A DNA stretch of 64,000 nucleotides from a bacterium. GTDB lineage: Bacteria > Bacillota > Sulfobacillia > UBA995. The position numbers and the translations under genes are program-made. This document shows positions 10,762-63,955 of this stretch, piece by piece. The notes beneath the pieces are model-generated. The model made no database searches and was not told the origin of the DNA. It saw nothing but the letters and a program-made list of their open reading frames with translations. Within the stretch, counting starts at the first letter, position 1. Each line of letters begins with the position of its first letter. Location of the stretch: positions 8,818 through 72,817 of the forward strand of contig JAVHLP010000008.1 of the NCBI GenBank assembly GCA_031082145.1. Direction: 5' to 3'.

Positions 10762-10770
10762 GGGGGGACC

Positions 10771-15779: not shown

Positions 15780-15828
15780 GGGTCCACCTCTTTCTTCTCG
15801 CCCCAAGACAAGGCGTTATGAGGTCAAA

Positions 15829-15915
15829 CGCCCAGCTCGGGATGATTATGGTGGACCGCCCATTCGCCGGCAGGCTTGGCATCTCCTGCCTGCTCTAGCA
15901 GGTATTTTGTGGCAC
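15829..15915 (-). promoter_or_regulatory. conserved ~87-nt upstream element, copy 1 (before the 5-domain M14 gene)
   Basis: The shared core with the 16848-16935 copy is CGCCCAGCT.GGG...TGGTG.A.CGCCCATTCG.CGGCA.GGCTTGGCATCTCCTG.CT...CAGGTA. It lies 43-49 nt upstream of the start codons of both M14 genes and contains a small hairpin, CCTGC-TCTA-GCAGG. Confidence 0.35.
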
Positions 15916-15960
15916 TTATGGCAGCATAGCTGCGGATCCGCTTGCCAGAAGGGGTTGCAC

Positions 15961-15996
15961 CGACTCAAAGAAGAAGCCGCGCCTTAAGGGCGCGGC
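15961..15996 (-). terminator. rho-independent terminator after the single-domain M14 gene
   Basis: On the minus strand a stem (arms GCCGCGCC and GGCGCGGC, TTAA loop) is followed by TTCTTCTTT. Confidence 0.4.
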
Positions 15997-16024
15997 CGGA
16001 GAGGAAAAGGGCAGGTGCGGGGGG

Positions 16025-16804: not shown

Positions 16805-16847
16805 AAATCCACCTCCGCCTCGACTCGCCCCCGGCGGGCGTACATAC

Positions 16848-16935
16848 GCCCAGCTTGGGGCTGTTTTGGTGAATCGCCCATTCGGCGGCAAGGCTGGCAT
16901 CTCCTGTCTCCGAAGGCAGGTAGATTATGCAAGAC
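16848..16935 (-). promoter_or_regulatory. conserved ~87-nt upstream element, copy 2 (before the single-domain M14 gene)
   Basis: See copy 1. The copies are about 75% identical over ~87 nt, while the flanking non-coding sequence is unrelated. Confidence 0.35.
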
Positions 16936-31031: not shown

Positions 31032-31725
31032 CGGCCGGGCGTTCCTTAAGGCGAAAACCAAAGCCCCACACCGTCTCAATGAGAGTCCTGCTGCCCGATA
31101 GTTTCTTCCGCAGCCGCCGCACGGTGTCGTCGGCGGCTCGCGTTTCCACTTCGCTATTGTACCCCCATATCTTGTTCAACAGTTCCTCCCGGGATATGGC
31201 TCTGTCTTTGTGCTGGATGAGATAACACAAGAGATTGTACTCATTCGGCGTGAGCTCCAAGGGAGCGCCCTCAAGCACTGCGGTCTTGTTGTTAAGGTCC
31301 ACTCGAACACCGGCATGCTCAAGAACAAGCGGCAGCGGAGTCTTCTTCTCCTTCGTATCGAATTCCATCCGGCGGAATATCGCCTTCACTCTCATGACAA
31401 GCGATATGGCCGAGAATGGCTTGGTGAAGTAGTCGTCGCTGCCGAGGTTTATCCCGGTGGCATATTCCAGCTCACCCTCACGAGCCGTGAGCATGATGAT
31501 GGGAACGGTGCTGATCTTGCGCAATTCCGAGCATACGGCAAACCCACTGGACCCCGGCATCATCACGTCGAGGATCACCAGGTCGCTTGGCCTCTCCCGG
31601 AAGGCGGCGAGCAACTGGTCGCCGTCCTCGAAGGCGCTGACGCAATACCCCTCACTCTCCAAGAAAGACTTGACCACCTCGCGTATGTTCTGCTCGTCGT
31701 CGGCAATGTAGATGCGCTCGTTCAT
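31024..31725 (-). CDS. OmpR-family response regulator
   Basis: The receiver domain has the phospho-acceptor context (DLVILDVMMPG). The winged-helix region reads TPNEYNLLCYL...WGFGFRL. The start is at MNERIYIADDE. Confidence 0.85.
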   Translation of the reverse strand: MNERIYIADDEQNIREVVKSFLESEGYCVSAFEDGDQLLAAFRERPSDLVILDVMMPGSSGFAVCSELRKISTVPIIMLTAREGELEYATGINLGSDDYFTKPFSAISLVMRVKAIFRRMEFDTKEKKTPLPLVLEHAGVRVDLNNKTAVLEGAPLELTPNEYNLLCYLIQHKDRAISREELLNKIWGYNSEVETRAADDTVRRLRKKLSGSRTLIETVWGFGFRLKERPAGE

Positions 31726-31798
31726 GCCCTTGTCCACCTCCCCTTCTATCGTTGCCCAGCCGGCAGCCAGCTTCACCCCGGGGAAGGCAGGGCTCTCC

Positions 31799-33535: not shown

Positions 33536-34196
33536 TGAAGCTCATCAGGGCCGCGTTGGTGACCCCCGGGATTATCGACAGCTCGTTCACAAACCTGGTC
33601 TCACCGGTTTTCAGGCGTATCTCGAAGACGAGTTCAATGCCTCTCGCCGCCGAGACCGTCTTGGACTTGACGCGGTACCGGGAGACGTTCCTCCTCATCA
33701 GATCCACGGCATCGCCTTCCGCCCCCTCGTCCGCGCAGTTGATGATCACGATGTAGGGAGTCTCGATCACGTTCTGGCTGACAAAGGCGATGAGGATAAT
33801 GCCGATGATCACCGAACCCAGCACGGCCAGCGGGATCAGCCCCGCGCCCAGGACGATTCCCGCGCCGATGGACCAGAAGAGGAACACCAGGTCCATGGGG
33901 TCTCTTATGGCGGTGCGGAAGCGGATGATGGACAACGCGCCCACCATCCCCAGAGAGAGAACGACGTTGGAGGTCACGGCCAGGATGATGAGCGTCGTGA
34001 GCATGGTCAGAGCCACCAGCGAGACGTTGAAGGGACGCGAGTACATGACGCCCGAGAAAGTCTTCTTGTAGATCAGATAGACAAACATGCCCACGAGGAA
34101 CGCGGCCACCAGGGCCAGCACGGCGTCGGTGAAGGAGAACCCGGTCACCTTCTCCAGGAAGCTGGACTTGAAGATGTCGTTGAACGTGAACCGCAT
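33516..34196 (-). CDS. DUF4956-like membrane protein
   Basis: A polytopic N-terminal half is followed by a soluble C-terminal domain, the architecture that typically accompanies CotH and VTC proteins. The call is from memory. Confidence 0.55.
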   Translation of the reverse strand: MRFTFNDIFKSSFLEKVTGFSFTDAVLALVAAFLVGMFVYLIYKKTFSGVMYSRPFNVSLVALTMLTTLIILAVTSNVVLSLGMVGALSIIRFRTAIRDPMDLVFLFWSIGAGIVLGAGLIPLAVLGSVIIGIILIAFVSQNVIETPYIVIINCADEGAEGDAVDLMRRNVSRYRVKSKTVSAARGIELVFEIRLKTGETRFVNELSIIPGVTNAALMSFSGEYAS

Positions 34197-34217
34197 TGGA
34201 TCGGCTCCTCTCGCAGA

Positions 34218-34904
34218 CTACGTGTAGACTCGGCAGGCGGCGTACTTCGAGACTGCCACCGGCGAGCATTTTCCCAGCTGGATGATGTCCTGGACCACTT
34301 CCGGCAGGAACCCGTCGAACTTCACCTCCAGGATGCAGATGCCGGGTTCCAGGGCCGGTGCGGTTGGGAGATCGGCATCAAACAGGTCGGTGGCGTTTAT
34401 CGACGCCCTGACGTCACTGTCCAGGGTCACCCGCACGTTGCCGGGGCGGTGGAGGTAGGCCTCCCGCAAGTAATCCACAACCGTTCTGGGGAGCCAGCGT
34501 TCCGTCCTGACCTTCAGGTAGAACTCCCTCAATAGCACCTGATCCGAGTCTCTCAGGAAGGCGACCTCACCCCTGCAGATGTCCTGCACCTCTTCCCTGG
34601 TCACTCTGGCTCCGAGCTTCGCGGCCTTGCCGTAGTGCTTGACCTTCTTCTCCAGCCGGATGAAGCTATGGTCGTGATTGTACAAGCGGATGCGGAATTT
34701 CTCCTTCATGGGCGCCCCGTCGATCTTGTCCCGGAGTGCACGGTCCTCGGGGGTGTCGAAATACAGGCTCCGGACATGATAGCTGCCTTCCGGCCGGGCA
34801 TGGGGGTCCAGGCGCAGGACGCAGGACAGCCTGCTCCTGAGAACTGCCGCGTCGGCCACGGTGATGATGTGTTTGAACTCGTTCCGATACGCCAGGTTGG
34901 TCAC
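34218..34904 (-). CDS. VTC-domain (CYTH-like, polyphosphate-polymerase-type) protein
   Basis: The product has the EFKHII, RSLYFDT and LEVKFDG elements of the CYTH/VTC triphosphate-tunnel fold and is 228 aa. Confidence 0.6.
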   Translation of the reverse strand: MTNLAYRNEFKHIITVADAAVLRSRLSCVLRLDPHARPEGSYHVRSLYFDTPEDRALRDKIDGAPMKEKFRIRLYNHDHSFIRLEKKVKHYGKAAKLGARVTREEVQDICRGEVAFLRDSDQVLLREFYLKVRTERWLPRTVVDYLREAYLHRPGNVRVTLDSDVRASINATDLFDADLPTAPALEPGICILEVKFDGFLPEVVQDIIQLGKCSPVAVSKYAACRVYT

Positions 34905-45715: not shown

Positions 45716-45915
45716 TACGCGCCCTCCTCAACCGGCATGGTCCACCCCGCGGCGCCTTGACCCGCGGAGGTCTTGCGGGATCTCGCTGGACCGGCACCTG
45801 TACTTTCAACGACCAGGCGTCTACTCCTCCTTCAGTGCCGGCAACCGCGCTGCACCATGCGCCCCGGCTTTACATAAACATGAAGAAAGCTCCCGCCACG
45901 TCTGGGGGAAGGGAT

Positions 45916-48285
45916 ATGGGTTTTCCCTGGGCGGAGGTGACCGAACTCCTCTCCCGGCAACCATCTGGGACCCTGGACCGGCCAGTCGCCGTACCCGTCT
46001 TGCCCGGGAGCTGCGGGGAGAAGCCGCTGGCGCTGATCGGGCAGGCCATCCGGGCGGGCCGCTACCAGGCGGCCCTTGGCCTCCTGGCCCGGGAAGGGGA
46101 GCGGTCGGGAGCCGCCGGTCCCGCCCTTGACCACGCTCAGTTTCAACTCCGGCTGGCAATGGCCCTCGCGTATGGGAGCCGGCCCGGCCGGCGTTGGCAG
46201 GCGCGAGCCCTGGCCCAACTCCAAGAGGCGACGCGGCTAGAACCAGCAGGCGAACCCGGCCGTCGCCTGAGGGCCGTGGTCGCACTCTACGGCGGTAACG
46301 CCGGCGAGGCACTCGCCCTGTACCCGGAACGGCCGCCGCCGGGGCTGGATCGGGCCCGGTGGGCGGTCGAGCATACCCTGATCGCGCTGGCGGCCGGCCG
46401 GCCGGAGGAGGTGAGACCCCGGCTGGAGAGTGCGGAACGGCCGGCGGGCTGGCCCTTGGAGCAGAATCTGGCCGAATGCCTGGGTGCCTGCTACTGGCAC
46501 CGGGGGGACTGGGCGGCCGCCCTCACCTGGTGGGAGAAGGCCGTTGCCCTGGGCGTCCGCCGCCTGGTCGGTCCCCTGGGCCTGTGCTATCACCGGGCGG
46601 CGGCCGCCTGCCAGGATAGCGATCCCGAGCAGGCCCTGGCCTGGTGGGAAGCTGCGGCGCGGCTGCGGCCGATCCGGCCCCCGGGGAGGGCTGCCAGGCG
46701 ATGGGCCCTGCGTCTGCGCTTGTTTCTTGCCTGGCGGGCCTGGGAGGCGAGCGACACCCGGACCGCCCTCTTGCACTGGCAGCGGGCCCGGGAGCTCATC
46801 CCCGGCCACCGGGGTGCCCGCCGGGGCGTGACCCTGGCCCACCTGGCCTTGGGCGACGGCAAGGCCGCGGCCAGGGTGGCAGGGGCGGGAAAGGCAACTG
46901 CCGGCGGGCGGAGTGGCGTCTACCTGCACCTCCTCCGGGCCAGCGCCCTGATCCTGTCCGGAGAGGTTGAGCCGGCCGCCGCCGACACCCTCCGGCTGGC
47001 CCGGGAGGGTGCGGCAGACGTCCGGGTGGACACCATGTGCGTGCTCTTGTTGCTCGCAACGGGCTGGGCGACCGATGCCGTCCGGCGCCTGGCGCCCTTG
47101 CTGGAACGCGATCCCGCCCCACCCTTGGCCGTCAAGGCCGCTGTCCTGGCCGCCCGCGCAACCGGAGACGTTAACCAGGCCGTTAACCTTCTGGGAGGGC
47201 TGCTGACGGCCGATCCCGCCGACCCCTGGGCCCTCTGTCAGTGGCGGGAACTCATGTTGGAGCAGGGCATCCGGGCGGCGGAGGAAGGCCGGCCGGGCGA
47301 CGCTCGCAAGTACTTTGCCAGCGTTCTGCTTCAGAACCATGATGACCCTGAGGCGTGGTTCCAGACCGGGGTCTCCCACCTGGTGGAAGGAGACCCCGAG
47401 GCGGCCGAGGATTGCTTCTCGGAGGCGGTGCGCCACTCGCCTCGGCCGGCCCGCGTGCTCCTGGCGGTCTGTGACCGGCTCCTGCGGGCGGGCGAGACCG
47501 GCGCCGCCCGTCGTTACCTCCGACAGGCCCGCCGGTGCGAGACTTCGTCTTCCTTCGCCGTCGACGCCGCCCATCTCTGCCTGGCCGCCGGCGCCGACGA
47601 CTGGGCGCTGGAAGTGCTCCGCGAGGCGGTGGCCGGCGGGGCAGAACCTGTGGGAACGGTTCACCAGATCCTGGCCAGCCTTCACGACAACGGCTGTCTG
47701 GACCGGGCCGTTCCCTTCCTGGAGGCGGCTCCCCGGTCCGTCTTCTCGGCCCGTACCTGGCTGCTGCTGACCCTTCTCTATATTGAGAAGCACAACTGGG
47801 CGGCGGCTGAGCGGGCACTGGACCGGGCCAGAACGGGGCCGAGGGAGGCGGCGTCCCAGCTGGCCGAAATCCATGCCTTCCTATCCCAGGCGGTGATCCT
47901 GGGCCGTGCCGTGGGCAGTCCGGATCGGGCGAACCTCGCCCGCAGCAAGGCCATCCTGCTCGAGGGTGTCCCTCGCGACAGTGCCGCCACCATCCCGTCC
48001 GGACAGGCGGTGAGCCTGGCCGCCCTGGGGATCCTCCGCGAACAGGCCCGGTGCGGCTGGGGTGTACCTCCCCCGGAACCCGGCCCCGAGCCTCCTCCGC
48101 AACCCCCGGCCGGGGATTACCGGGGGCCACGGCGGCCCCTGCTGGCCTGGTGGCTACAGGTGGAAGGGCGGACCGCGACCAGCAACCACGGAGACTGCCT
48201 AAAGGCCCTGGCCGCCCTGGGATCCGTCCCCGCATCGACCGTGACCGATGGGGAGGCGAGCCCGTCACGGGAGACCTTGCCATGA
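45916..48285 (+). CDS. large TPR-like alpha-helical repeat protein
   Basis: The ATG at 45916 follows GGGGGAAGGG (the listed 45757 start is less likely). The product is about 790 aa of W/A/L/R-rich helical repeats. Its stop overlaps the next start (ATGA). Confidence 0.55.
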   Translation: MGFPWAEVTELLSRQPSGTLDRPVAVPVLPGSCGEKPLALIGQAIRAGRYQAALGLLAREGERSGAAGPALDHAQFQLRLAMALAYGSRPGRRWQARALAQLQEATRLEPAGEPGRRLRAVVALYGGNAGEALALYPERPPPGLDRARWAVEHTLIALAAGRPEEVRPRLESAERPAGWPLEQNLAECLGACYWHRGDWAAALTWWEKAVALGVRRLVGPLGLCYHRAAAACQDSDPEQALAWWEAAARLRPIRPPGRAARRWALRLRLFLAWRAWEASDTRTALLHWQRARELIPGHRGARRGVTLAHLALGDGKAAARVAGAGKATAGGRSGVYLHLLRASALILSGEVEPAAADTLRLAREGAADVRVDTMCVLLLLATGWATDAVRRLAPLLERDPAPPLAVKAAVLAARATGDVNQAVNLLGGLLTADPADPWALCQWRELMLEQGIRAAEEGRPGDARKYFASVLLQNHDDPEAWFQTGVSHLVEGDPEAAEDCFSEAVRHSPRPARVLLAVCDRLLRAGETGAARRYLRQARRCETSSSFAVDAAHLCLAAGADDWALEVLREAVAGGAEPVGTVHQILASLHDNGCLDRAVPFLEAAPRSVFSARTWLLLTLLYIEKHNWAAAERALDRARTGPREAASQLAEIHAFLSQAVILGRAVGSPDRANLARSKAILLEGVPRDSAATIPSGQAVSLAALGILREQARCGWGVPPPEPGPEPPPQPPAGDYRGPRRPLLAWWLQVEGRTATSNHGDCLKALAALGSVPASTVTDGEASPSRETLP

Positions 48286-49676
48286 CCTCGGTGGTCATCT
48301 GCCGTGACCGCGCCTTCGCCGACCAGCTGTCGCCGCTCCTGCCCGGGGTAACGGTGACGACCGCACCCGACCCGGCCGTCAAGTGGGACGTCGCCGTCCA
48401 CTGGACTCCAGGCTTCGCGCCCGTCAACGCTCTCCGCCATCTCAACCCACCGGCAGCTCTTGAGCGGCTGGCCTCGTTGCCGACGGCCCGGAAAGTGCTC
48501 CGGCTAAACGGGTTGCGAACCCTACCCGGCTTCGGGCAAGCCTCCACCCCTTCCCTCGGGGGGGGCTTCTGCCGGGTACACCTCTTCGACGGCGCGGCCA
48601 TCTCCGTCAGGGCCCCTGGGGGCCGGTACCACCGGCAGAATCTGGTGTCAATGGCGCTCCGGGCCCTGTACTGCCTGGGCCTGGATTTCGGCGCCGTCGA
48701 CCTGCGCCCCCGCCGGTTGACGGCGACCGTCCTGCGCATCGACCCCGCCCCGGCTGTCGATGCTCCCCTGGCCGAAGCCTATGCCAGGGCGATGCTGCCG
48801 CGGCTGGCCGGCGAAACCGGCGACGGGGGGCCGGTCAAGATCGGGGCCGATCCGGAGTTCATCGTGTTCCGCCGGCGGGATGGCAGGCGCGTTCCGGCAT
48901 CCCGCTTCTTCCGCCGTCACGCGGGGATCGGTTGCGACTGGGCCCCGGGGTTCCGTGGCTTCCCCCTAGGCGAACTCCGGCCCTCGCCGTCCGAGTGCCC
49001 TCTCCGGCTCACGGAAACCCTGGCCGTCCAGATCGAGAGGGCGAGGCGCCATGTCGGCGGCGATTTCGGTCTGGTCGCCGGAAGCCGTCCTTACCCGTCC
49101 TTGTACATCGGCGGCCACGTTCACTTCTCCGGCGTGGTTCTGACCGCCGACCTCCTGCGGGCCCTGGATACGTACGTCGCCCTGCCTGTGCTGCTGCTGG
49201 AAGCGGCCTCGCCGGCCAGCAGCCGCCGGAGGCGCTACGGATTCCTGGGCGATTGCCGCCGCAAGCGGCACGGCGGCTTCGAGTACCGCACCCTACCCAG
49301 TTGGCTGGTGTCCCCGGAGGTGACCGCCGCCGTCCTCTGCCTGGCCTACCTGGTAGTCCTGGAGCACCGGCGGCTCAGGGGGCGACTGCTGGTAGACCCT
49401 GAACGGCAGGAAGCGTTCTACCAGGCGGACAAGGAGACCCTCCGCCCGCTCTGGCCCAGGCTCTGGGCCGATCTCAGGGCGACGCCATCGTATTCTCGCT
49501 TCCGCAGTCCCCTCCGGATCCTCCCCGACCTGATCGAGCGGCGGGTGACCTGGGATGAACGGCTTGAACTGGGAGCAGCGTGGTCCCAGTACAAGCCCGA
49601 CCAGGTGAAGGCCGAGCCGGCCATCACGGCTCTGGCCATGGCCCTCCGGCTCTTCACCCGCCGCGCCACAAAGTAG
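48282..49676 (+). CDS. amidoligase fusion paralog (ATP-grasp C-lobe remnant plus GS/GCS2-like domain)
   Basis: It is the paralog of 10771..12150. Shared motifs are LYCLGLDFGAVDL, KIGADPEFIVF, YIGGHVHFSG and RRYGFLGDCRRKRHGGFEYRT. Confidence 0.5.
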   Translation: MTSVVICRDRAFADQLSPLLPGVTVTTAPDPAVKWDVAVHWTPGFAPVNALRHLNPPAALERLASLPTARKVLRLNGLRTLPGFGQASTPSLGGGFCRVHLFDGAAISVRAPGGRYHRQNLVSMALRALYCLGLDFGAVDLRPRRLTATVLRIDPAPAVDAPLAEAYARAMLPRLAGETGDGGPVKIGADPEFIVFRRRDGRRVPASRFFRRHAGIGCDWAPGFRGFPLGELRPSPSECPLRLTETLAVQIERARRHVGGDFGLVAGSRPYPSLYIGGHVHFSGVVLTADLLRALDTYVALPVLLLEAASPASSRRRRYGFLGDCRRKRHGGFEYRTLPSWLVSPEVTAAVLCLAYLVVLEHRRLRGRLLVDPERQEAFYQADKETLRPLWPRLWADLRATPSYSRFRSPLRILPDLIERRVTWDERLELGAAWSQYKPDQVKAEPAITALAMALRLFTRRATK

Positions 49677-49685
49677 GAATCGGGT

Positions 49686-52130
49686 TCAGGCCGAGGCCAG
49701 GCGGCCTCGAGCCAGCCACTCCTCAACATCCAGGGGTTGACCGAACCGGATCGCCTCCGCCTGCAGGCGCGGGGACGGCAGTTCGGCGCCCGCCGGAGAC
49801 ACTTCGGTGGCCGCTATCCCTTGCAGGATGGCCTCCAATTCCTCCCGTGCCCAGGCTTGCCATTTCCTGGCCGGTTCGGGCTCGGGCGGCGACTTCTCCA
49901 GCATCCAGCTGTCCAGGATACTCCCAACGGCGCCCTCGAACTGGCGTTGATCGGTTGACCCCACCGTTCGCAGGAGGATCAGGGCCTGCGAGAGCTGGAC
50001 AGCCGCCGTCGCCAGGATCTGATCTCCCCCTCCGTCGGCTGGAATGCGATCGAGGGCCTCCTGGGCCCTACGCCAGGCGCCGGCACGGATATGCTGGACG
50101 GCCACCAGGAGGTGGACCCGGGGGCTACCGGAAGTCACCTCCAGGGCATCATCGAGGACGGTCAAGGTCTTGCCGACATCGCCAATCCGGATGACCAACC
50201 GCAAGATGAGGGGAAGCTCCCGGGCGCCGGCGTCGCATTGACGCAGGCCGGCCTGAAGGCGTTCAAAGGCCAGTTCCGGCCATTTGTTCTCCAGACAGGT
50301 CTCGGCTATCAGCAGTTCCGTGGCCGCGGTGGGATCCAGTTCCAGGGCGCGGTCGAAGTAGGCGCGGGCCTCCTCCCGCCGGCCGACCAGGAGCTGGCAG
50401 CCGCCGACTTTCACCAGTGTCTCAGCAGAACCCGGCCGCACCCGGACCGCTTCGTCGAGGCAGTCCTTGGCGGCGGCCTCATTGCCCTGTTGGAGGTGTA
50501 GTAGCCCGCACCATATCCAACCATCGGCATCCTCCCGGTCCTGAAGCAGCAGCGCGGCGAAGGTCTGCATGGCCTCCTTCCAGTTGCCGGCCTTCCAGGC
50601 ATTGATGCCGACTTCGAGGGAGTGCTGCCGCCACCGGGCGGCGGTCTCCGGGTCCGGCCGCAGCACCATTGCCCGCTTCCAGCCTTCGGCCTTCTCGCCG
50701 GGGGGCCGGCCGCCCAGGTCCACGGCCAAGGCCCAGCCCAGCGCGAGCTGGGGATCTCCGGGATGCTGGCCGTGCGCGGCTTCAAAGGCCGCCCGAGCCC
50801 CCTCGAGGTCTCCCCCCAACAGGCAGATGAAACCCTGGATCCGGCCCAAGGTGGCATCGGCCGGCAGTTCTCTCACCTGCCGGAGGGCGTTGACAGCCTC
50901 GCCAGCCTTGCCCTGGCGGGCCAGAGCTATCCCCCGGTGAACAGCGCTCAGCGCCCTCACGTGGCCATCTCCCGCCGCCCGCGCCAGTTCACCGGCCTGG
51001 CGCCACCACTCACCCGCCTCCCGCCACTCTTCCGCGGACTCGTGAACCAGCGCGAGATTGCCGGCGGCGGCGGCGGATTTCCGGGTCTCGAAGGAACGCC
51101 TCCAGGTATCCCCCGCCTCCTGCCGCCGCCCCTCCTGCCACTGCGCGTTGCCGGCCAGGAGCTCGGCGGTGGCCAGGAGATCGGTCATCACCGGCTCTCC
51201 GGGCTTGAGTTCCAACGCTTGCCGGCAAGCCCGGACGGCTGGCGCGTGATCACCACCGGCGAGGGCGGCCAAAGCCTGCTCTTCGTAGGCAGCCAGCAGT
51301 TTGACAACACTGGCGCCACCGGCTGCCCGGCGGTACTGGTCCGCTTCTTCCATCCGGCCAAGGGCCTCGCAGACATCGCCCAGCAGGCCCGCAACCTTGG
51401 TGGCCTCTCCGGGGAAGCCGTTCTCGGCCAGGACCTGGTACTGCTCAGCCAGCCAGTCCCGGAGCCAGGCGGCCGGCTCAACCGACCGGCTCAGATCGAG
51501 GACGTCGGCCCACCAGATCTCGGGGGGAGTTGTGGCCGGATCGAGAGGCTCTAGCGCCTCTTCCGGCCGGCCCAGGGCGGCCAGGGCCAGGGCCCGCAGG
51601 CGGGCCCAACCCCACCGGGGAATGGAGTTCTCCGCCGCCGCTTCGGGGGCCGTTAGCAGGTCCAGGGCACCGGAAGGGTCTCCCTGCCGGAGGCGAGCAA
51701 GGACGCAGTAGTAGCGCGTCTCCGGGGCGGCTCCATCCAGGTCTAACCCCCGGGCCAGGTCGGCCGCGGCGCCCGCCAGGTCCCCCATGCGGTAGCGGCA
51801 CATCCCGAGCTCGTGAGCGTAGCGAGCGCTCGCGGCGTCCCACTGCACCGCCTCTTGGAGCGCAGCCAGGGCTCTCGCCATGGCCTGGGCAGTGGGCTTT
51901 CCCCGCAGGAAGGCTCGGCTTCTCTGGTAGTAGGCCCTACCCATGCGCTGCTTGACCGCGTCCACCAGTGGGGACTCGAGGTCCTGATTATTCGCCAGGA
52001 AGCCGCGCCAGACCTTGATCGCCGCGGCGGGACTGCCCTTTGCCATAAGCCTGTCGCCCCTGGCTACGAGTTGGGGAAGCTGCCCGGTAGACACGGAGGA
52101 GTGGCCCCCTTTTTCATTGGGTTGGACCAC
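49686..52130 (-). CDS. large TPR-repeat protein
   Basis: The product is 814 aa of tandem TPR-like units and is convergent with the amidoligase paralog. Confidence 0.6.
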   Translation of the reverse strand: MVQPNEKGGHSSVSTGQLPQLVARGDRLMAKGSPAAAIKVWRGFLANNQDLESPLVDAVKQRMGRAYYQRSRAFLRGKPTAQAMARALAALQEAVQWDAASARYAHELGMCRYRMGDLAGAAADLARGLDLDGAAPETRYYCVLARLRQGDPSGALDLLTAPEAAAENSIPRWGWARLRALALAALGRPEEALEPLDPATTPPEIWWADVLDLSRSVEPAAWLRDWLAEQYQVLAENGFPGEATKVAGLLGDVCEALGRMEEADQYRRAAGGASVVKLLAAYEEQALAALAGGDHAPAVRACRQALELKPGEPVMTDLLATAELLAGNAQWQEGRRQEAGDTWRRSFETRKSAAAAGNLALVHESAEEWREAGEWWRQAGELARAAGDGHVRALSAVHRGIALARQGKAGEAVNALRQVRELPADATLGRIQGFICLLGGDLEGARAAFEAAHGQHPGDPQLALGWALAVDLGGRPPGEKAEGWKRAMVLRPDPETAARWRQHSLEVGINAWKAGNWKEAMQTFAALLLQDREDADGWIWCGLLHLQQGNEAAAKDCLDEAVRVRPGSAETLVKVGGCQLLVGRREEARAYFDRALELDPTAATELLIAETCLENKWPELAFERLQAGLRQCDAGARELPLILRLVIRIGDVGKTLTVLDDALEVTSGSPRVHLLVAVQHIRAGAWRRAQEALDRIPADGGGDQILATAAVQLSQALILLRTVGSTDQRQFEGAVGSILDSWMLEKSPPEPEPARKWQAWAREELEAILQGIAATEVSPAGAELPSPRLQAEAIRFGQPLDVEEWLARGRLASA

Positions 52131-57080: not shown

Positions 57081-57542
57081 TCAGTGCAGCAGGGGCTCGA
57101 GATCCACCACGAACGCTCCCCGTGACTCCCAGTCTATCCTGACGTCCGGTCGCCCCAAGGGTATGTCCAGCGATCGGCCCTGCTCGGGATCGGTGATCCG
57201 CAACGAGAACTCGCTGCCGAAGAGCCCCACGTCGAGCACGGCGTTGGTGTCGACGTGTAGCTTGAGCCCCCGGTAGTTGTCGCCAATCTCGCTGCTGACG
57301 GCAGGCAACGCTTCCAGCGGCCCCAACCCCAGCCCGGCAGCAGTTGACTCGTGGCCATAGGCCGCCTCCCGCCCACAGGCGGCCACCCGCTTGCCCAGGA
57401 TGACCATTCCGTTTATCAGGTAGCGATCCAACCCCCGGCTGCCCGCCACCGGCTCGCCCGACCGGGTCAGGTGGAGTTCGAACCGGGTAGTGTCGTCCAC
57501 CGACAACGAGGTCTCGGTATAGAGCTCCACGCCCAGCTTCAC
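57081..57542 (-). CDS. hypothetical protein downstream of the MNIO gene
   Basis: The GTG at 57542 follows GGAAGGGGGTGAGG. The product is 154 aa. I recognise no family. It could be an MNIO partner protein. Confidence 0.35.
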   Translation of the reverse strand: MKLGVELYTETSLSVDDTTRFELHLTRSGEPVAGSRGLDRYLINGMVILGKRVAACGREAAYGHESTAAGLGLGPLEALPAVSSEIGDNYRGLKLHVDTNAVLDVGLFGSEFSLRITDPEQGRSLDIPLGRPDVRIDWESRGAFVVDLEPLLH

Positions 57543-57621
57543 CTGCCTCACCCCCTTCCGCTGGCCGCGTTCCAGGCTATGCGGGACATCTGTCAGGGGT
57601 GAGCGGGCGGGCCGATGGGAC

Positions 57622-58422
57622 TCAGTCCAGCAGCTCGCGCAGTCGCCCCATCTGACGCCGGAGTGCCCCGGGATCACTGCGGATCTGATCCTGCTCTCTC
57701 ATGCCGCCGTACTCCAGGGTCAACACCCGCGGCCGGCACCGATGCAGCGCCCACCGCAGCAGTTCGTAGCCTTCGCCGCCGATCTCCTCGTGCCAGTCAT
57801 CCAGCACGCCGTCGACGACCGCCGGCCCGGAGATATGGATCTCCTCCACGCGATCCAGCGGCAGCCAGGAGAGGTAGTCCCCCACGGTTTCGCCCCGGTA
57901 CCACGATGTGACCTGCGCATGAGCCAGGTCCAAGAGGAACTGGCAGCCGGCGGCGTCCACCACCCGGCTGATGAACCGGGGGTCACCGGTGAAGGCGGGG
58001 AATGCGGGTTGCCCCAGGGCGGGCACGCCCACCGGCTCGTTCTCCAGGTGCACGGGCAGGAGGGTGGTCGCCTCCAGGATTCGCACGTCGGCAACGATCC
58101 GCTCTAGGACGATGTCGGCGCCGACGGCTTCGAGATCCATCGCCGGGTAGCCGAGATGTACGGAGAGATAGCGGGAACCGGCCAGCTTAATAGCTTGCAG
58201 CAGGCTATGCGGGTCGAACTCCCCGGCGAAACGGTCATCTCCGGGGCTCGAGGTCTGGACTAGCCCATGAAGCAGTATTCTCCCCGCTTGGTAGAGCCCT
58301 CGAAGAGCGTCCTGGTGGGCGAGCAAGGTCCGGGGGTACATTTTGACCAGGTCAACCAGGTCCGGTTCTCTCTCCAGCAGGGCCAAGAGCGCCGGCGAGC
58401 AGTTTGCGGCAAGCAGGGTCAC
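57622..58422 (-). CDS. DUF692 / MNIO (MbnB/TglH-like multinuclear non-heme iron oxidative enzyme)
   Basis: The product is colinear with MbnB blocks: LENEPVGVPA matches LYLENYPSI, FLLDLAHAQVTSWYRG matches VLFDASNAICAQNNTG, EIHISG matches HFHVAGYG, and TLEYGGMREQD matches TYERDFD. Its start overlaps the stop of the permease fragment (ATGA). Confidence 0.7.
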   Translation of the reverse strand: MTLLAANCSPALLALLEREPDLVDLVKMYPRTLLAHQDALRGLYQAGRILLHGLVQTSSPGDDRFAGEFDPHSLLQAIKLAGSRYLSVHLGYPAMDLEAVGADIVLERIVADVRILEATTLLPVHLENEPVGVPALGQPAFPAFTGDPRFISRVVDAAGCQFLLDLAHAQVTSWYRGETVGDYLSWLPLDRVEEIHISGPAVVDGVLDDWHEEIGGEGYELLRWALHRCRPRVLTLEYGGMREQDQIRSDPGALRRQMGRLRELLD

Positions 58423-58709
58423 GGCATCAACCTCCCGGGACTATATGACGGAATCGGGGGCACAACGGTCTCGACGGTCAGGGAGGCCGGTACTCGACCC
58501 GGCGACTCATACCGCAAGGCCGCCACCGGCTCCATGCGCGCGGCCCGCCGGGCCGGCCACATCCCGAAGAACAGCCCCACCGCCAGTGAGAAGCCGAAGG
58601 CTAGTCCTATCCCCCACCACGATGTGGCCACGGGCAGGTGGCGGATGAGCCGGGCGGCCAGCCTGGCTCCCCCGATCCCCACGGCGATCCCGATCAGCCC
58701 GCCGGCCAC
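58419..58709 (-). pseudogene. displaced 3' fragment of the FtsX-type ABC permease gene
   Basis: The 96-aa ORF is about 95% identical to the C-terminus of the intact permease (62082..63260) but continues ...ALRYESPGRV... into the MNIO start. Confidence 0.7.
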
Positions 58710-58727
58710 GGAGAGAACGGCGGCCTC
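58516..58727. repeat. direct repeat, left copy (~210 bp), flanking the inserted island
   Basis: It matches 62094-62306 at about 96% identity, with about 7 mismatches and one 1-nt indel by eye. Confidence 0.8.
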
Positions 58728-59039
58728 CAGTCTTTGCTGCCGTTACTCCTTCGGCCGTGAGCACGATGGGTCCGACGGCATTACGTACCACCAACCCCGG
58801 GAGAGATGACGATGTCAGCATCTGTCTCCCCTGCGGCGTACGGCGCACGCTGGACGCTGGGCAGGAGGACTACTAGTGCTGACTTCGAGACCAGAACCAT
58901 CTCCCTCCTCTCGCGTGGGAAGGGCTTGGCCCAACCCCTCGGCCTAACGGCACCTGAGGAGCGGGGTATGGCGCGACGCCGCGTCATACCCCTCGCTCTC
59001 CATGCGCTTGTTCGGCACACCGAGATCGCGCCCGGCACC

Positions 59040-59390
59040 TCACTTCTGCTTCTCCGCCGCCCCTTCCATCCGCAGTTTCTGCAAGAGTGGCGCAGCTTCC
59101 ATAATGCTCTTCAGTCCTGCCTGCGGGACACAAGCGAGTCGCGAGAGCATGTCAAGGTCGTCACGATGGGCAAGTTTCCCATCACATGCACAACGGGAGT
59201 TGCATGGGCACTGGCTGCCGTTCCGTGAATCACAAGGGCAGTGACCCTCACAGCATTTCGATGCAGCTGATATGTCGAAGGTGGGTAGCTTCGCCGCTGC
59301 GAGGGCCGGCACCACTGCGAGTGATAGCTGCTCAGCAATGCTCTTCGCCAGCGCGCTCAACTCCTCCGTCCTGAGGACCTCTGACATCAT
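59040..59390 (-). CDS. Cys-rich 117-aa protein (candidate RiPP precursor or metal-binding peptide)
   Basis: An AAAGGAG RBS lies 6 nt before the ATGATG at 59390. The core CCEGHCPCDSRNGSQCPCNSRCACDG has 8 Cys in 26 residues, with predicted helical leader-like N- and C-terminal flanks. The listed ORF start at 59501 is less likely. Confidence 0.5.
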   Translation of the reverse strand: MMSEVLRTEELSALAKSIAEQLSLAVVPALAAAKLPTFDISAASKCCEGHCPCDSRNGSQCPCNSRCACDGKLAHRDDLDMLSRLACVPQAGLKSIMEAAPLLQKLRMEGAAEKQK

Positions 59391-59439
59391 CGCCAGCTCC
59401 TTTCGTTCGAAGGCTCCTCCCTTTCCCGTCACAGCCGCG

Positions 59440-60912
59440 TCACACCAAAGCATCACCTCCTCCCGTCTGGCTGGGGGCAAACAGAGTGCATAGCAGCTCA
59501 TCGGCCGTGATATTGCGGGTGAGGAAGCATCGTTGCAGTGCCTCGGAGCCTATCACAGCCTGCAAGCCGCCCAGCGCCGCTTTGGCGATGCAGTCGCCGC
59601 CGCAGTTCCACTTCACGAAACAGTCTCGACACCGCTCAATCCCTGTGACGTCGAGGCTCCTGAGCCGGCGCACCTTGTTGTTGTCAAGGACGAACGCATT
59701 CAACGATGGGTCGTAGCACCCATAGATGAACATGTCCCCACGAGGATCTGATAGGTCAAGAACTTCGTAACAAGAGGACACGAATCCGTCCGTTGAGACG
59801 CAGAAGTTCAAGTCGGGTCCGTAGGCGCTACAGAAGCTCGATCGGAGACCATCCAACCGGCAACTTGACAGGCCGATCTGCATTCCGTTCTGGCGTCCAA
59901 ACGCACTGGCTTCTCGGAAATGGATCAAGAACTTCGACATGAGATCGGAGTCTGCCAGACCAGCGTCACGAGCACGCCCGGTCTCGCACACCGGCTCGAA
60001 GTTGATGTACCGGCATTTCGTCTTCTCGCGGACAAACACGGCAAAGTCCTTCATGCTCTGTACGCCGATGGAAGTGACCGTGCTGCGGATGCAGTAGTCC
60101 ACATGGTGCTCCTCCAGCAGCCTCAGTGAGCGCATGAGCGTCTCAAAGCTGCTCGCGCCGCTCCGCAATGGCCGCTGGACGTCCATGATCTCTTGTAGGC
60201 CATCCATTGAGATACCGACACGGAAGCCATGCTCTGCGAGGAATGATGCTTTGGCCGTGCTCAGAATGCCATTAGTTACCAACGAGAACCGCGGGGTTAG
60301 CCCCTCTCGATCGCAGAGGTCTTCTGCCAAGAGCACCGATTGGCGGAGAAGGGGCCAATTGGCCGTGGGCTCTCCCTGGCCGTGAAACTCGACCTCAAAC
60401 GTGTCCTTCGATCTGGCAACCGAATTGTCGAAGACAGTGCGCAGGGCCGCTTCTGCCGTCTTCCAAGACATTGCGCGGGGGCTGTCGCCACCGTGAATGT
60501 AGCAGTAGATGCAGGCCATTTGGCAAGCCGATGTAAGCGAGAGCGTAAGCTGTGTGGGGAGAAAATCATCTTCTTGATGCCCATTGCACATGCGAGGGTG
60601 CAGTCTTGCCTTCGTATCGAGGAGACGGATCAAGTCCTCATCGGGCTTGATCTCACATTCCGAGAGGCACGTCGACATTGAGGCGGTCGGATTGAGCAAG
60701 ATGCTGGCGAGACCCGCGCCGGTAATGAGGACCAGCAAACCCTGAAGGGGAGAATACAGCAGATACCCGTCGAGATAAGGTATGGCAAACAGGTCGTCTC
60801 CTACCACGAACCAGGAGTCGCTACCGTGGTACCGAACGCACTCACTCAGCCGTGCTTGGAGTGCAGCCTCGGTTGAGAGTTGTTGCAGCGACAACGGAGC
60901 GCGCTGTGCCAT
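59440..60912 (-). CDS. radical SAM enzyme with C-terminal SPASM domain
   Basis: CQMACIYC is a CxxxCxxC motif about 130 aa from the N-terminus. The C-terminal Cys cluster reads CRLDGLRSSFC...CYE...CRDCFVKWNCGGDC. Length is 490 aa. Confidence 0.8.
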   Translation of the reverse strand: MAQRAPLSLQQLSTEAALQARLSECVRYHGSDSWFVVGDDLFAIPYLDGYLLYSPLQGLLVLITGAGLASILLNPTASMSTCLSECEIKPDEDLIRLLDTKARLHPRMCNGHQEDDFLPTQLTLSLTSACQMACIYCYIHGGDSPRAMSWKTAEAALRTVFDNSVARSKDTFEVEFHGQGEPTANWPLLRQSVLLAEDLCDREGLTPRFSLVTNGILSTAKASFLAEHGFRVGISMDGLQEIMDVQRPLRSGASSFETLMRSLRLLEEHHVDYCIRSTVTSIGVQSMKDFAVFVREKTKCRYINFEPVCETGRARDAGLADSDLMSKFLIHFREASAFGRQNGMQIGLSSCRLDGLRSSFCSAYGPDLNFCVSTDGFVSSCYEVLDLSDPRGDMFIYGCYDPSLNAFVLDNNKVRRLRSLDVTGIERCRDCFVKWNCGGDCIAKAALGGLQAVIGSEALQRCFLTRNITADELLCTLFAPSQTGGGDALV

Positions 60913-61448
60913 TGAGTGTCACTTGCCTTTCTGTCCTGTACCTGCCGGAGGAAACGCTCTGAGCGGCTTGAAAACCACCGAACCCTGGCTCCGCGACGTC
61001 GCAGCCCATGCCTGCTGCCAATATCTGGGTTCACCGTGTACGCGGTGACTCCTCTTTGTAGCCCGCTGGTTGGGTCGACACCGTCAACGCTTCTGCGCGC
61101 TCCCGAGTCCCGCGAAGGACATGGGCCAACAAGGAGGTCGCTTCCTCCAGGTTCATGGGCGGGAGGGGAGACTGGAACCTACCTGGGCATGCCGCCGCGA
61201 CTCCTGCGGTGTTGGCTGTCTGAGTGAACCGAGTCCCCACCGAGAGTGCCCGCCAGTATGTCGGTTCCGAGGGCACGATAGTGGCAGCTGCCCGTGAGCC
61301 CCGTGACATCGAGCGTTCACTGCGGCGGGCCGACGGTTGGCCGCGCTAACCTGCGTCAACCGTAGTGCATCGGACTGGGCACCGACGGCCGGTGTCAGGT
61401 GGAGCGGATGTCAGCCTGTCGTCTTCCCGGCAAGGGACGCTGGTGAGG

Positions 61449-62060
61449 TTACCACGAGTAGCAGCGGAGCTCGACGTTCACCTCATCGAGGCTGAAGTGG
61501 TCAGGGTCCCACGGCCCGCCAAGCCACGCCACCATCTCGTCGTGCTCCTCGCGGGCGGGATCGGCGATGATCTCCAGTAGGCGGTAATAACCCCCGATGC
61601 CGCCGCAGTCCTCGGGCGGGCAGGCTCGCCGCCCGGCCAGGCAGGTCGGGCAGGTCACACTCTCCTGGGCCGGCAGGATCCGCTCCACCTTGACCGAGTG
61701 CCTCCAGCCGTCCCCGTAGTCATACTCGTACAGGAACGTGCTCCCCTCGAAAGGGACCAATCGCTGCAGCACCGCCCTTGTGGCCTCGCGCATGTCGAAC
61801 CAGGGATCGTCCTCGAGTTCCTCACCGTACTCCTCGCCGGCAATCCTGAAACGGTACAGATGGCAGTTCAGCCACCCCATGGCGATCTGAATGGCCATGT
61901 GCAGCCCGGCCAGGGTAATGTTACCCGGCACCTGGAGCCGCCGCCAGATCGGGGGCTTGCTGCCGCCGAGAGTGACTTTGAGCTGGTAGACACGCCTGGG
62001 TGAGGCCCGCCGCGTCCGCTGCGGACCCGCTTGCCGCCCGATCTCCTGTTGCCGTGACAA
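61449..62060 (-). CDS. pRiA4b ORF-3-like family protein
   Basis: VYQLKVTLGGSKPPIWRRLQVPGNITLAGLHMAIQIAMGWLNCHLYRF matches the PF07929-type N-terminal signature, a family often seen on plasmids and transposon-like elements. Confidence 0.6.
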   Translation of the reverse strand: MSRQQEIGRQAGPQRTRRASPRRVYQLKVTLGGSKPPIWRRLQVPGNITLAGLHMAIQIAMGWLNCHLYRFRIAGEEYGEELEDDPWFDMREATRAVLQRLVPFEGSTFLYEYDYGDGWRHSVKVERILPAQESVTCPTCLAGRRACPPEDCGGIGGYYRLLEIIADPAREEHDEMVAWLGGPWDPDHFSLDEVNVELRCYSW

Positions 62061-62081
62061 ATCTATCCCATCCTCTGCCGC

Positions 62082-63260
62082 TTAGTCGTGTCGAAGGGCC
62101 GCCACCGGCTCCATGCGCGCGGCCCGCCGGGCCGGCCACACACCGAAGAACAGCCCCACCGCCAGTGAGAAGCCGAAGGCCAGTCCTATCCCCCACCACG
62201 ATGTGGCGACGGGCAGGTGGCGGATGAGCCGGGCGGCCAGCCTGGCTCCCCCGATCCCCACAGCAATCCCGATCAGGCCGCCGACCACGGAGAGAACGGC
62301 GGCCTCGACCAGGAACTGTAACAGCACGTCCCGGTCGCGAGCGCCGACGGCCTTGCGGATCCCGATCTCGTGGGTGCGCTCGGTGACGGTTGCCAGCATG
62401 ATATTCATGATCCCGATCCCGCCGACGATCAGCGAGATGCTGGCTATCCCGGTCAGGACCCCGGTCAGGATGGTGAGGACGGAGTCGATGGCGTCGATCA
62501 TGGCCTGCTGGTGCAGGACCCCGACCCCCGCGCCGCTGTGGCGTTCCTTCAGGAGGCTCTCGATCTCGTCCGCCAGCGCGGCGACCTTGGCCGTGCTCTC
62601 CGCTCTCACGGCGATGTGGCCTAGCTCGGTCCGCAGGCCCAGCTCATCGGCAGCTTCCAGGCTGATATAACTACGCCGGTCGAAGTTGTACATGAGAACC
62701 GACGGCTGCGGGGCAAGCACGCCGCGGACCGTGAAGGCGGTATCGGCCAGCAGTACCTCCTGGCCGACGGCGCTCCCACCGGGGAACAGGGAGACCGACA
62801 GTCTGGCTCCCAGGACGATCCCCCGGCGGTCACCGGCTGCCAGGAAGCAGCCGTCGGCCAGGGACAGGCGGAAGGCCGCCTCCGCAGCCGGTTCGGTCGC
62901 CACCACGGTGCCGGTCACCCGCAAATCCCCGGCCGCCAGTTCACCTGAGGAATCCGCCACCGAGCAGGCTGCCAGGACACCCTCCAGCCGGGAGATGGCA
63001 GCGGTATCGGCCGGGGTGAGCCGGGCCGGGGGCCGGGAGCCGCGGGGCGCCGGCCCCATGCCCCCGCCGGTCACCATCAGGTGGTCGGGGGACATATCGC
63101 CCAACCGCCCGGTGGCCTCCTCCCTCGCCCCCTGGCCAATGGACACCAATGACACCACGGCGGCCACGCCGATGATGACGCCCAGCATGGTGAGACCCGA
63201 GCGGAGCTTGTTGGCCCCCATTCCATCCAGGGCCAGCCTGGCATAAGCCAGCAAGGTCAT
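62082..63260 (-). CDS. ABC transporter permease, FtsX/MacB-like
   Basis: It has an N-terminal TM segment, a periplasmic domain and three C-terminal TM helices with the ...IGIRKAVGA motif. Its start overlaps the ATPase stop by 4 nt. Confidence 0.85.
62094..62306. repeat. direct repeat, right copy (~210 bp), forming the 3' end of the intact permease gene
   Basis: It matches 58516-58727. The junction with the island falls exactly after the ...AALR codon, and island sequence supplies the last residues HD and the stop. Confidence 0.8.
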
Positions 63261-63955
63261 AGGCCCGCCCTCCTCTCGTCCCGGCTCACGCGGCCATCCC
63301 GGACCTCTATAATCCGGGGGGCGGCGGCGGCGATCTCGGGGTTGTGGGTAACAAGGATCAGCGTCCGGCCCTGCCGGTTGAGTGAGCCGAACAGGTCCAG
63401 GATCTCCCGGCCGGTACGGGTGTCCAGGTTGCCCGTGGGTTCGTCGGCCAGTATGAGACCGGGGTCGTTGACCAGCGCCCGGGCTATGGCCACCCGCTGC
63501 TGCTCGCCCCCGGACAGCTCACCGGGGCGGTGGGTCAGCCGATCCCCCAAGCCGACCTGCTCCAGGACACCCCCGGCCCGCTGCCGGGCCGCCCGCGGCG
63601 CTACCCCGGCATAGGTCAGGGGAAGAACCACGTTGTCCAGCGCGGCCAGGCGGCTCAGCAGGTTGAAGGTCTGGAAGACGAACCCCAGCCGCCGGTTCCT
63701 CAGCCGGGCCAGACCATCACCGGTCAGAGCAGTCACGTCTTGGCCGTCAAAGCGGTACCGGCCCGATGATGGCCGGTCCAAACACCCCAGGATATGCATC
63801 AAAGTTGACTTACCCGAACCCGACGGCCCGATGATGGAGACGAACTCGCCGGCATCAACGGCGAGGTTGACCCCCCGCAGGGCGTCAACGCTACCCCGTC
63901 CCTGGCCGTATACCTTGGTGAGCTCCTCCACTTCCAAGAGAGGCATCAGCCGCAT
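63257..63955 (-). CDS. ABC transporter ATP-binding protein (MacB/LolD-like)
   Basis: Walker A GPSGSGKST, the signature LSGGEQQRVAIARAL, Walker B ILADEPTGNLD and the H-loop are all present. Confidence 0.9.
   Translation of the reverse strand: MRLMPLLEVEELTKVYGQGRGSVDALRGVNLAVDAGEFVSIIGPSGSGKSTLMHILGCLDRPSSGRYRFDGQDVTALTGDGLARLRNRRLGFVFQTFNLLSRLAALDNVVLPLTYAGVAPRAARQRAGGVLEQVGLGDRLTHRPGELSGGEQQRVAIARALVNDPGLILADEPTGNLDTRTGREILDLFGSLNRQGRTLILVTHNPEIAAAAPRIIEVRDGRVSRDERRAGL

Follow-up and report, generated by a model that had tools for sequence, protein, structure and literature searches.

A 3.4-kb insertion with a replacement gene end in an FtsX-type permease gene of a Sulfobacillia contig, tentatively read as a stranded integrative island

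The DNA considered in this report is a 64-kb stretch, hereafter the window, of a metagenome-assembled contig (JAVHLP010000008.1) from a bacterium of the Sulfobacillia, with a GC content of 0.678, and its subject is the 3' end of a gene that encodes a permease of the MacB/FtsX type. This gene end is present twice, once within the intact permease gene and once as a displaced fragment further downstream, and the two copies enclose inserted DNA that carries three genes, namely those of a pRiA4b ORF-3-like protein, of a radical-SAM enzyme, and of a small Cys-rich protein. Beyond the fragment come a DUF692/MNIO gene and one further open reading frame (ORF), and all the genes from 63955 down to 57081 are encoded on the minus strand. 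The features of the locus are given here in the direction of transcription; GC3 is the GC content at third codon positions.

63257-63955, minus strand: ABC transporter ATPase gene (MacB/LolD type), the first of the exporter pair; Pfam ABC_tran, E=3.4e-32.
62082-63260, minus strand: intact gene of the MacB_PCD + FtsX permease, 392 aa, the target gene, ending AALRHD-stop; MacB_PCD, E=1.8e-30, and FtsX, E=8.8e-21.
62097-62306: repeat copy A, within the intact permease gene; 202/210 identical to copy B.
62082-62096, minus strand: replacement gene end, CTT CGA CAC GAC TAA, which reads LRHD-stop and fits the family terminus.
58728-62096: inserted DNA, 3,369 bp, between the repeat copies and bounded by the sharp ends of similarity.
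61449-62060, minus strand: pRiA4b ORF-3-like gene, the first after the replacement tail; Pfam PF07929, E=3.4e-67.
60913-61448: non-coding gap of 536 bp between the pRiA4 and radical-SAM genes; GC 0.644.
59440-60912, minus strand: putative radical-SAM/SPASM-type maturase gene; Pfam Radical_SAM (PF04055), E=3.1e-14.
59040-59393, minus strand: gene of the Cys-rich 117-aa protein, with AGGAG 7 nt before the ATG.
58728-59039: non-coding gap of 312 bp that ends at the junction with repeat copy B; GC 0.647.
58518-58727: repeat copy B, the displaced permease 3' fragment; 202/210 identical to copy A.
58419-58709, minus strand: 96-aa FtsX fragment ORF; FtsX, E=7.5e-6.
58419-58517, minus strand: putative native permease end (LRYE) and a 28-codon read-through to a TGA in the MNIO start (GTGA).
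57622-58422, minus strand: DUF692/MNIO gene; Pfam PF05114, E=5.3e-13.
57081-57677, minus strand: 198-aa ORF, the last of the co-directional block; GC3 0.839, no family match.

The feature that carries the argument is the direct repeat. Its copies, at 58518-58727 and 62097-62306, are offset by 3579 and identical at 202 of 210 positions (96.2%) in a gapless alignment, with exact runs of up to 53 nt in common, and the alignment shows that similarity drops sharply at both edges. These are the exact bounds of two segments of about 210 bp and about 96% identity that an initial annotation of this DNA had pointed out, and both indeed encode the last transmembrane helix of the permease, as that annotation held, with Pfam FtsX matched in both ORFs. 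The flank upstream of copy B is unrelated to the permease, and in-frame stops appear there. A third copy of the permease end, which would be a sign of tandem accretion, was found neither as DNA nor as protein in the 64-kb window (blastn, tblastn). The cargo predicted at first sight, i.e., a radical-SAM enzyme, a Cys-rich 117-aa protein with a strong ribosome-binding site (AGGAG), and a pRiA4-like protein, is likewise confirmed.

Regarding the few codons that follow the repeat, the comparison relies on an outgroup, the permease P0061 (loci L012 and L013), which is 75% identical to the window permease and is its only relative above 45% identity among 5.8 billion proteins. The exporter pair in L012 is orthologous to that of the window, because the neighbouring ATPases are 77% identical. 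P0061 ends ALRYE-stop, and a terminus of the form ALRx[E/D]-stop is shared by 119 of the 120 closest permease homologues, 85 of which have ALRYE. The intact permease of the window ends LRHD-stop, while the fragment reads TTG CGG TAT GAG (LRYE), with Leu and Arg kept via different codons. Over the 18 nt past the repeat (62079-62096) the tails of copy A and copy B differ at 8 positions (9 of 18 in a re-count by script), and the step from 8 mismatches in 210 within the repeat to 8 in 18 beyond it has a Fisher p of 2.5e-6. Since nearly all homologues end in the same pattern, the ALRHD tail reads as a genuine, anciently diverged permease terminus, and because it is a bona fide terminus the incoming DNA would have carried a permease gene end, a feature typical of elements that insert into gene 3' ends. 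The initial annotation had regarded the new tail as derived from island sequence; that the tail is incoming agrees with these data, whereas it is not arbitrary island sequence, being instead a diverged homologue of LRYE that conforms to the family terminus.

The same comparison bears on which copy is native. In the 18 nt past the repeat, the tail of copy B differs from the outgroup L012 at 3 positions and that of copy A at 6; around the stop, the sequence is TAC GAG TAG CCGGG in the outgroup and TAT GAG TCG CCGGG in the fragment. The simplest reading is that the displaced fragment would be the ancestral native end, because its tail is nearer the outgroup and the CCGGG after the stop is common to both, and that it has probably lost its stop codon, the TAG of the relative being TCG here. 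Each repeat copy is 79.0% identical to the outgroup. All four derived changes in the intact copy A are synonymous, and those in the fragment, copy B, are two non-synonymous (V>A, V>M) and two synonymous, a pattern that fits a functional copy A and a decaying copy B. The proposal that the gene was kept intact by an incoming replacement end, with its native end displaced as a fragment, is thereby supported.

Downstream of the fragment, the stop of its ORF does overlap the start of the MNIO gene as had been noticed, though through the letters GTGA and not ATGA. This overlap is probably secondary and no relic of translational coupling, because the fragment reads on for 28 codons after the loss of its stop. 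The MNIO gene matches PF05114 with 49.3 bits (cut-off 25), over residues 147-238 only, while all NCBIfam MNIO equivalogs stay far under their cut-offs; its ribosome-binding site, GGGAGG, lies within 58419-58517. The nearest MNIO homologues are 36-44% identical and stand beside unrelated genes (HlyIII and Peptidase_M14; Lactamase_B_2; a DNA methylase and a restriction enzyme), with no ABC exporter or conserved partner next to them, and no precursor peptide or partner protein for the MNIO enzyme is recognisable at the window locus. The 198-aa ORF has no match in Pfam, NCBIfam, or PADLOC and is absent beside MNIO homologues elsewhere. As called, this ORF overlaps the MNIO 3' end by 56 nt, and its true start is probably further downstream.

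It had been suggested that the island splits a native operon of ABC exporter and MNIO genes, and this finds no comparative support: L012 has the exporter without the MNIO gene, and MNIO homologues occur without the exporter. The permease stop of L012 is followed by a convergent gene only 6 bp away, and this locus has neither the island nor an MNIO gene. In the lineage of the window, the distance from the permease to the MNIO gene was about 84 nt before the insertion, and all of the 5 kb from the permease stop to the convergent genes is lineage-specific.

The composition of the inserted DNA is uneven. Against a GC3 background of 0.830 +/- 0.031, taken from 44 window genes, the radical-SAM gene stands at 0.690 (z=-4.5) and the Cys-rich gene at 0.644 (z=-6.0), whereas the pRiA4 gene, at 0.848 (z=+0.6), is host-like, as are the MNIO gene (0.805) and the 198-aa ORF (0.839). 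The codon-usage score agrees with this GC3 pattern, and both non-coding gaps (GC 0.644 and 0.647) are near the window average. The low GC and odd codon usage that had been described across 3.4 kb are consequently found, once GC and GC3 are computed, in the radical-SAM and Cys-rich genes, and not in the pRiA4 gene or the gaps. The island is composite, with a host-like pRiA4 passenger beside the junction and a foreign module of 1.9 kb formed by the radical-SAM and Cys-rich genes; because of this mosaic, the low-GC module probably joined a pre-existing pRiA4 islet later.

The search for the means by which this DNA may have moved covered about 50 ORFs across the whole window, all scanned with Pfam, and none of them is an integrase, excisionase, resolvase, or transposase; that no integrase is left in the window had been correctly seen from the start. 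In the island gaps, six-frame pieces compared with Pfam at E<=1 gave no recombinase remnant, only a chance-level match to DUF3693 (E=0.18, in the 536-bp gap), and no transfer gene was found in the island. Rfam at E<=1 returned only two chance-level matches, and a promoter and terminator scan gave nothing above shuffles. The 312-bp gap holds a hairpin of 12 bp at about 58963-58992, in a region whose stability is about that of shuffled sequences (z=-1.6), and with no U tract. No 10-mer or longer word is repeated in the non-coding parts of the island, so there is no sign of arm-type sites. Compared with phage records, the island DNA has no match, and with plasmid records only weak matches to pRiA4 genes.

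Our favoured reading, held tentatively and at a little short of even confidence, is that 58728-62096 is the remnant of an integrative island, now without an integrase and stranded. In this model, a single reciprocal crossover would have joined the chromosome with a circular DNA that carried a copy of the permease gene end, leaving the intact permease to be finished by the incoming five-codon end (LRHD-stop), and displacing the native end (LRYE) 3.4 kb downstream, where it would decay as a pseudogene. The repeats, their junctions, the replacement tail, the mosaic composition, the lack of a recombinase, and the mobility of the cargo families are observed, and from these we infer that a circular intermediate existed, that the crossover was site-specific, and in which order the steps took place. 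What would remain is a remnant flanked by attachment (att) sites, movable only by a recombinase supplied in trans, and the 210-bp repeats could mediate deletion or amplification of the island through host homologous recombination. The initial annotation had proposed a site-specific integrative element in the 3' end of a gene; foreign DNA that brings a replacement end is borne out, while the site-specificity is only suggested by the architecture.

This kind of insertion, in which integration preserves a gene 3' end and displaces a pseudo-end, is already known. The cryptic prophage e14 (and phage 21) in the icd gene of Escherichia coli resembles the window in that it sits in the 3' end of a protein-coding gene, supplies a replacement end, and displaces the native one. 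When measured in E. coli K-12, the e14/icd repeat spans 165 bp, of which 12 are mismatched (92.7% identical); its 5' edge is sharp, and the displaced pseudogene is icdC. The differences are that e14 is 15 kb in length and has intE and xisE, while the window island is 3.4 kb without a recombinase; that the e14/icd mismatches are spread more evenly, the last 22 nt before the stop, while the window tail is far more diverged than the repeat; and that both icd copies keep their stop codon, while the displaced copy of the window has probably lost it.

Elements flanked by att sites and devoid of integration and transfer genes are a described class, the cis-mobilizable elements or CIMEs (PMC5704250), decayed remnants of integrative and conjugative or mobilizable elements in which attL and attR persist. 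The window island would be CIME-like in having neither integrase nor transfer genes, as in the elements related to ICESt1 at the fda 3' end of Streptococcus thermophilus, and differs in that its repeats are only putative att sites and that no third copy indicates tandem accretion. The att repeats of the CIMEs related to ICESt1 are tens of bp long and not 210, and we know of no related functional integrative and conjugative, or integrative and mobilizable, element for this host. A third parallel is RecA-dependent integration of the Campbell type, together with homology-facilitated illegitimate recombination; both make do with a single homologous anchor of a few hundred bp and need no recombinase of the element, and the Campbell type leaves direct repeats of the anchor, with the difference that a natural circular donor bearing a permease end and the cargo must be postulated.

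Several observations weigh against an integrative island. The pRiA4 gene has the composition of the host and both gaps come close to the average, which leaves a deviant part of only about 1.9 kb in 3.37 kb, and neither the roughly 50 ORFs of the window nor the gaps hold an integrase, an excisionase, a transposase, or a remnant of one. A repeat of 210 bp is long for an att site, though little above the 165 bp of e14/icd. Whereas 3.8% of the positions differ within the repeat, about 50% do so over the final 18 nt, a step that is unexpected for a contiguous gene end borne on an element unless later gene conversion homogenised the repeat. The outgroup is as far from copy A as from copy B (79.0% identity), so that a copy brought in by the element would need a very close relative as its source. 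Moreover, no strict empty site was found: the permease of L012 ends ALRYE-stop and has no island behind it, but it also lacks the MNIO gene, and at 75% identity this nearest relative is too distant for an empty-site test. Finally, the source is a metagenome-assembled contig.

The close, main rival is recombination by the host itself, either homologous or illegitimate and without a dedicated integrase, which would have merged two conspecific alleles; we regard this as possible and somewhat less probable than the integrative island. The two alleles would both lie downstream of the conserved exporter, one with the order permease, tail X, pRiA4, and perhaps radical SAM, the other with the permease followed by MNIO. 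A circle or a linear fragment would enter, RecA would anchor it on the ~210 bp of permease sequence, for which this length is ample, and the anchor would thereby be duplicated, while the diverged five-codon tail would be the junction of an older horizontal transfer. Such an origin accounts better than the integrative island for the step in identity from 96% to ~50%, for the equal distance of both copies from the outgroup, for the host-like composition of the pRiA4 gene, and for the total absence of a recombinase; it also fits the near-average GC of the gaps. The spot itself is variable, as the nearest relative lacks the entire 5 kb that separates the permease stop from the convergent genes. 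On the other hand, at least two events are needed where the integrative model needs one, and the tail requires an earlier donor in which a distant permease was followed by pRiA4, an adjacency seen in 0 of 80 pRiA4 loci. Homology-facilitated illegitimate recombination, moreover, usually gives a deletion of recipient DNA and not a duplication of the anchor.

The next alternative gives an active part to the pRiA4 gene, whose family must be introduced first. The window protein matches PF07929 over profile positions 2-173 of 173, and its only relative in the PDB, 2I1S (E=8.7e-41), is annotated 'hypothetical protein'; a single-sequence AlphaFold model has a pLDDT of 44.8 and is unusable. The family is widespread, with at least 592 confirmed matches among the 600 stretches listed by a scan of a genome collection. 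Across an alignment of 38 homologues about 30 residues never vary, with His, Asp, Glu, and Cys frequent among them, in motifs such as YDFGDxWxH and ACPPEDCGG, which suggests a catalytic or metal-binding site. PADLOC gave no defence-system match for the pRiA4 protein or for the Cys-rich protein. To our knowledge, pRiA4-like proteins are still functionally uncharacterised more than 30 years after IS1096.

Members of this family are found on many kinds of mobile DNA. One pRiA4 gene lies inside an IS21-like element of an Azospirillum plasmid and another beside a site-specific integrase on a Rhodococcus plasmid, and at least 196 viral contigs of IMG/VR have one, where they are near the contig ends in 14 cases against 6.8 expected, with a Kolmogorov-Smirnov test that is not significant. 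They adjoin the 3' end of a tmRNA gene in 2 of 60 loci, at distances of 130 bp (L027, 3722-4778) and 363 bp (L023, 8001-9270). In locus L050 (6042-11420), tRNA-Gly(CCC) is followed by a DUF6933-pRiA4 fusion as the first gene of a 5.3-kb island that contains an IstB gene; the last 42 nt of the tRNA gene recur perfectly 5.3 kb downstream, and none of the five ORFs tested in the island is an integrase. In addition, pRiA4 genes are reported to be carried in transposons of the ISAzba1 group (PMC3942029). On this comparative evidence, pRiA4 genes are recurrent passengers of mobile elements.

Two further loci are closer to the window in their anatomy. In an Acidobacteria metagenome-assembled genome (MAG; L030, JACQZR010000248.1, 7860-8668), the 3' end of a Laminin_G_3 gene harbours an insert of 0.7 kb whose sole gene is pRiA4. 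Direct repeats of 49 bp (96% identical), both made of that gene end, lie on either side, and beyond the repeat the intact gene continues into one tail and its displaced fragment into another. This locus is like the window in having pRiA4 first after a replacement tail, repeats of a gene 3' end, two tails, and no recombinase, and unlike it in the smaller insert with no other gene, in the target, and in a pRiA4 gene of lower GC3 than its neighbours (0.64 vs 0.76). In a Betaproteobacteria MAG (L076, 7708-12410), a 4.6-kb segment led by pRiA4 lies between two copies, 65 bp long and 83% identical, of the signal-peptide-encoding 5' end of what by eye is a downstream peroxiredoxin-like gene, the upstream copy being a stub of 33 aa; the segment holds pRiA4, HlyIII, and a large ORF that resembles, again by eye, a sensor of the GGDEF/EAL type, and its ORF list shows no recombinase.

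These loci favour the possibility that pRiA4 marks, and possibly drives, compact insertions without a recombinase that occur at gene ends, duplicate tens to hundreds of bp of the gene, and bring a diverged replacement end, which we nevertheless consider improbable. The same anatomy in L030, the duplicated gene end around the pRiA4-led segment of L076, the fusion placed first after the tRNA-Gly repeat of L050 with no integrase in five ORFs, and the invariant residues, if they do form a catalytic or metal site, all speak for it. A screen based on composition-corrected tblastn, adopted in place of a tblastx version that was discarded for its noise in high-GC DNA, speaks against it, as a duplicated upstream gene end was present at the protein level in only 1 of 49 testable pRiA4 loci. 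Repeats spanning pRiA4 loci are only modestly enriched (6 observed, 3.4 expected) and vary in length (42, 49, 65, and 210 bp), the only solved homologue is unannotated and no usable structure model was obtained, and pRiA4 genes also occur in ordinary insertion sequences and beside normal integrases. An FtsX permease gene was found beside none of the pRiA4 genes of the 80 loci L014-L093, nor beside the radical-SAM modules of the earlier loci.

An artefact of assembly, in which two strain variants would have been joined through the permease 3' end as a false bridge, appears quite improbable. The contig does come from a MAG, exact runs of up to 53 nt can be traversed by a de Bruijn assembler, and neither the three window proteins looked up (MNIO, radical SAM, and permease) nor P0001, an NCBI MAG protein 100% identical to the MNIO protein, is recorded in the collection of assemblies that was searched, so that no entry there cross-checks the arrangement. 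Nonetheless, copy B is truncated and its upstream flank is unrelated and contains stops, the join would have been needed exactly at 58727/58728, where no k-mer is common to the two sides, and the eight differences between the copies are patterned as those of a functional and a decaying copy. A tandem duplication of the permease end in situ, followed by foreign DNA that replaced the part downstream of the first copy, is very improbable, for although it agrees with near-identical repeats at equal distance from the outgroup, it requires several precise steps and leaves unexplained why a diverged but genuine permease end is contiguous with foreign DNA.

Returning to the cargo of the presumed integrative island, its foreign part can be followed beyond this genome. 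The best NCBIfam match of the radical-SAM enzyme is the PapB ranthipeptide maturase, with 103 bits against a cut-off of 340, and the other top matches (maturases of the nif11 type and of SCIFF) are all far under their cut-offs, so it belongs to no named equivalog (PapB, ScfB, CcpM, or others); the Pfam SPASM model does not match it either. Seven cysteines are invariant in 20 homologues, C130, C134, and C137, which form the CxxxCxxC motif, and C428, C431, C437, and C441 of the C-terminal auxiliary-cluster motif. By these features, the enzyme is best described as a SPASM-type peptide maturase of an unnamed subfamily. PADLOC gave weak matches to viperin only, which were attributed to the common radical-SAM core, and this assignment was rejected.

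The protein encoded after it, with the core CCEGHCPCDSRNGSQCPCNSRCACDG, has no family match in Pfam or NCBIfam, and it is the conserved partner and probable substrate of the enzyme. A homologous small gene lies 3' of the radical-SAM gene in L005, L010, L011, L101, L102, L106, and L107, and a small Cys-rich homologue follows the enzyme in every locus with enough sequence, except the frameshifted L105; some loci also have such a homologue 5' of the radical-SAM gene. These proteins are 110-140 aa long; an N-terminal helix precedes their core of CxC[N/D] repeats, and their C-terminal region is conserved. The modules have the following coordinates, each in its own locus.

Window: 59040-60912.
L005: 8001-9813.
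L010: 841-3167.
L011: 2852-5131.
L101: 4704-6517.
L102: 1056-2896.
L106: 2782-4673.

The flanks of the module agree between L101 and L105, two contigs from soil metagenomes; the L105 enzyme ORF stops short at 415 aa and no Cys-rich ORF is called there, although the spacing is unchanged, probably as a result of frameshift errors or in a decaying copy. In the 536-bp gap of the window, 60942-61181 (plus strand) has weak tblastn similarity, with three stops, to a protein of 393 aa encoded close to the L005 radical-SAM cluster (E=0.004), and 61165-61359 (minus strand) has marginal similarity to the upstream Cys-rich paralogue of L011 (E=0.17). These similarities may be decayed remnants of a larger module, or due to chance.

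The resemblance of this pair to known maturases of Cys-rich ribosomally synthesised and post-translationally modified peptides (RiPPs), such as PapB, SCIFF/ScfB, and CcpM, lies in the CxxxCxxC core with a C-terminal Cys cluster and in the small Cys-rich gene after that of the enzyme. Typical leader-core precursors differ, as the window protein has its conserved region of about 45 aa after the CxC[N/D] repeats. The enzyme family is rare, with about 22 close members in a protein search and 8 metagenome loci, seven of them new, or about 30 in public data. The pair occurs in at least 8 distinct and unrelated contexts, in hosts with a GC content of 39-68% overall and of 39-62% in the loci compared with the window, and one copy is on a plasmid contig with Rep3, MobA, and a type IV coupling protein (T4CP); a scan of viral contigs with the radical-SAM protein gave no match. 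By this distribution the pair is a horizontally mobile two-gene module, and it appears to constitute an uncharacterised RiPP-like system.

Elsewhere in the window, three regions are worth recording. A cluster of the peptide-ligase type at 8096-16900 has two YheC/D ATP-grasp genes, a phiEco32-like COOH-NH2 ligase, and a 1219-aa protein with four AstE/AspA (M99-like) carboxypeptidase domains, together with a further single-domain copy. A second cluster, at 45757-52130, has a COOH-NH2 ligase (48051-49676) flanked by TPR proteins of 842 and 814 aa. Lastly, at 29631-34904 a trio of CotH kinase, DUF4956, and VTC-domain genes adjoins a HAMP/HisKA histidine kinase and a response regulator of the OmpR type, in genes whose GC content at first codon positions is below the rest of the window.

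As to what the permease locus means, it is a clear natural case of integration that preserves the end of a transporter gene, and the displaced native end is still readable, so that sequence alone tells in which direction the event went and how old it is in relative terms. The pRiA4 genes that recur at the edges of islands are a concrete set of loci in which to ask for their function, and if the pRiA4-marked mode of insertion were true, it would be an unrecognised kind of compact, recombinase-less insertion in which the pRiA4 protein itself takes part. The pair formed by the radical-SAM enzyme and the protein with CxC[N/D] repeats is uncharacterised and worth expressing. In this genome, the insertion has put that module behind an ABC exporter and before a DUF692/MNIO gene, all on one strand, and accretion of this sort could assemble new loci for peptide natural products.

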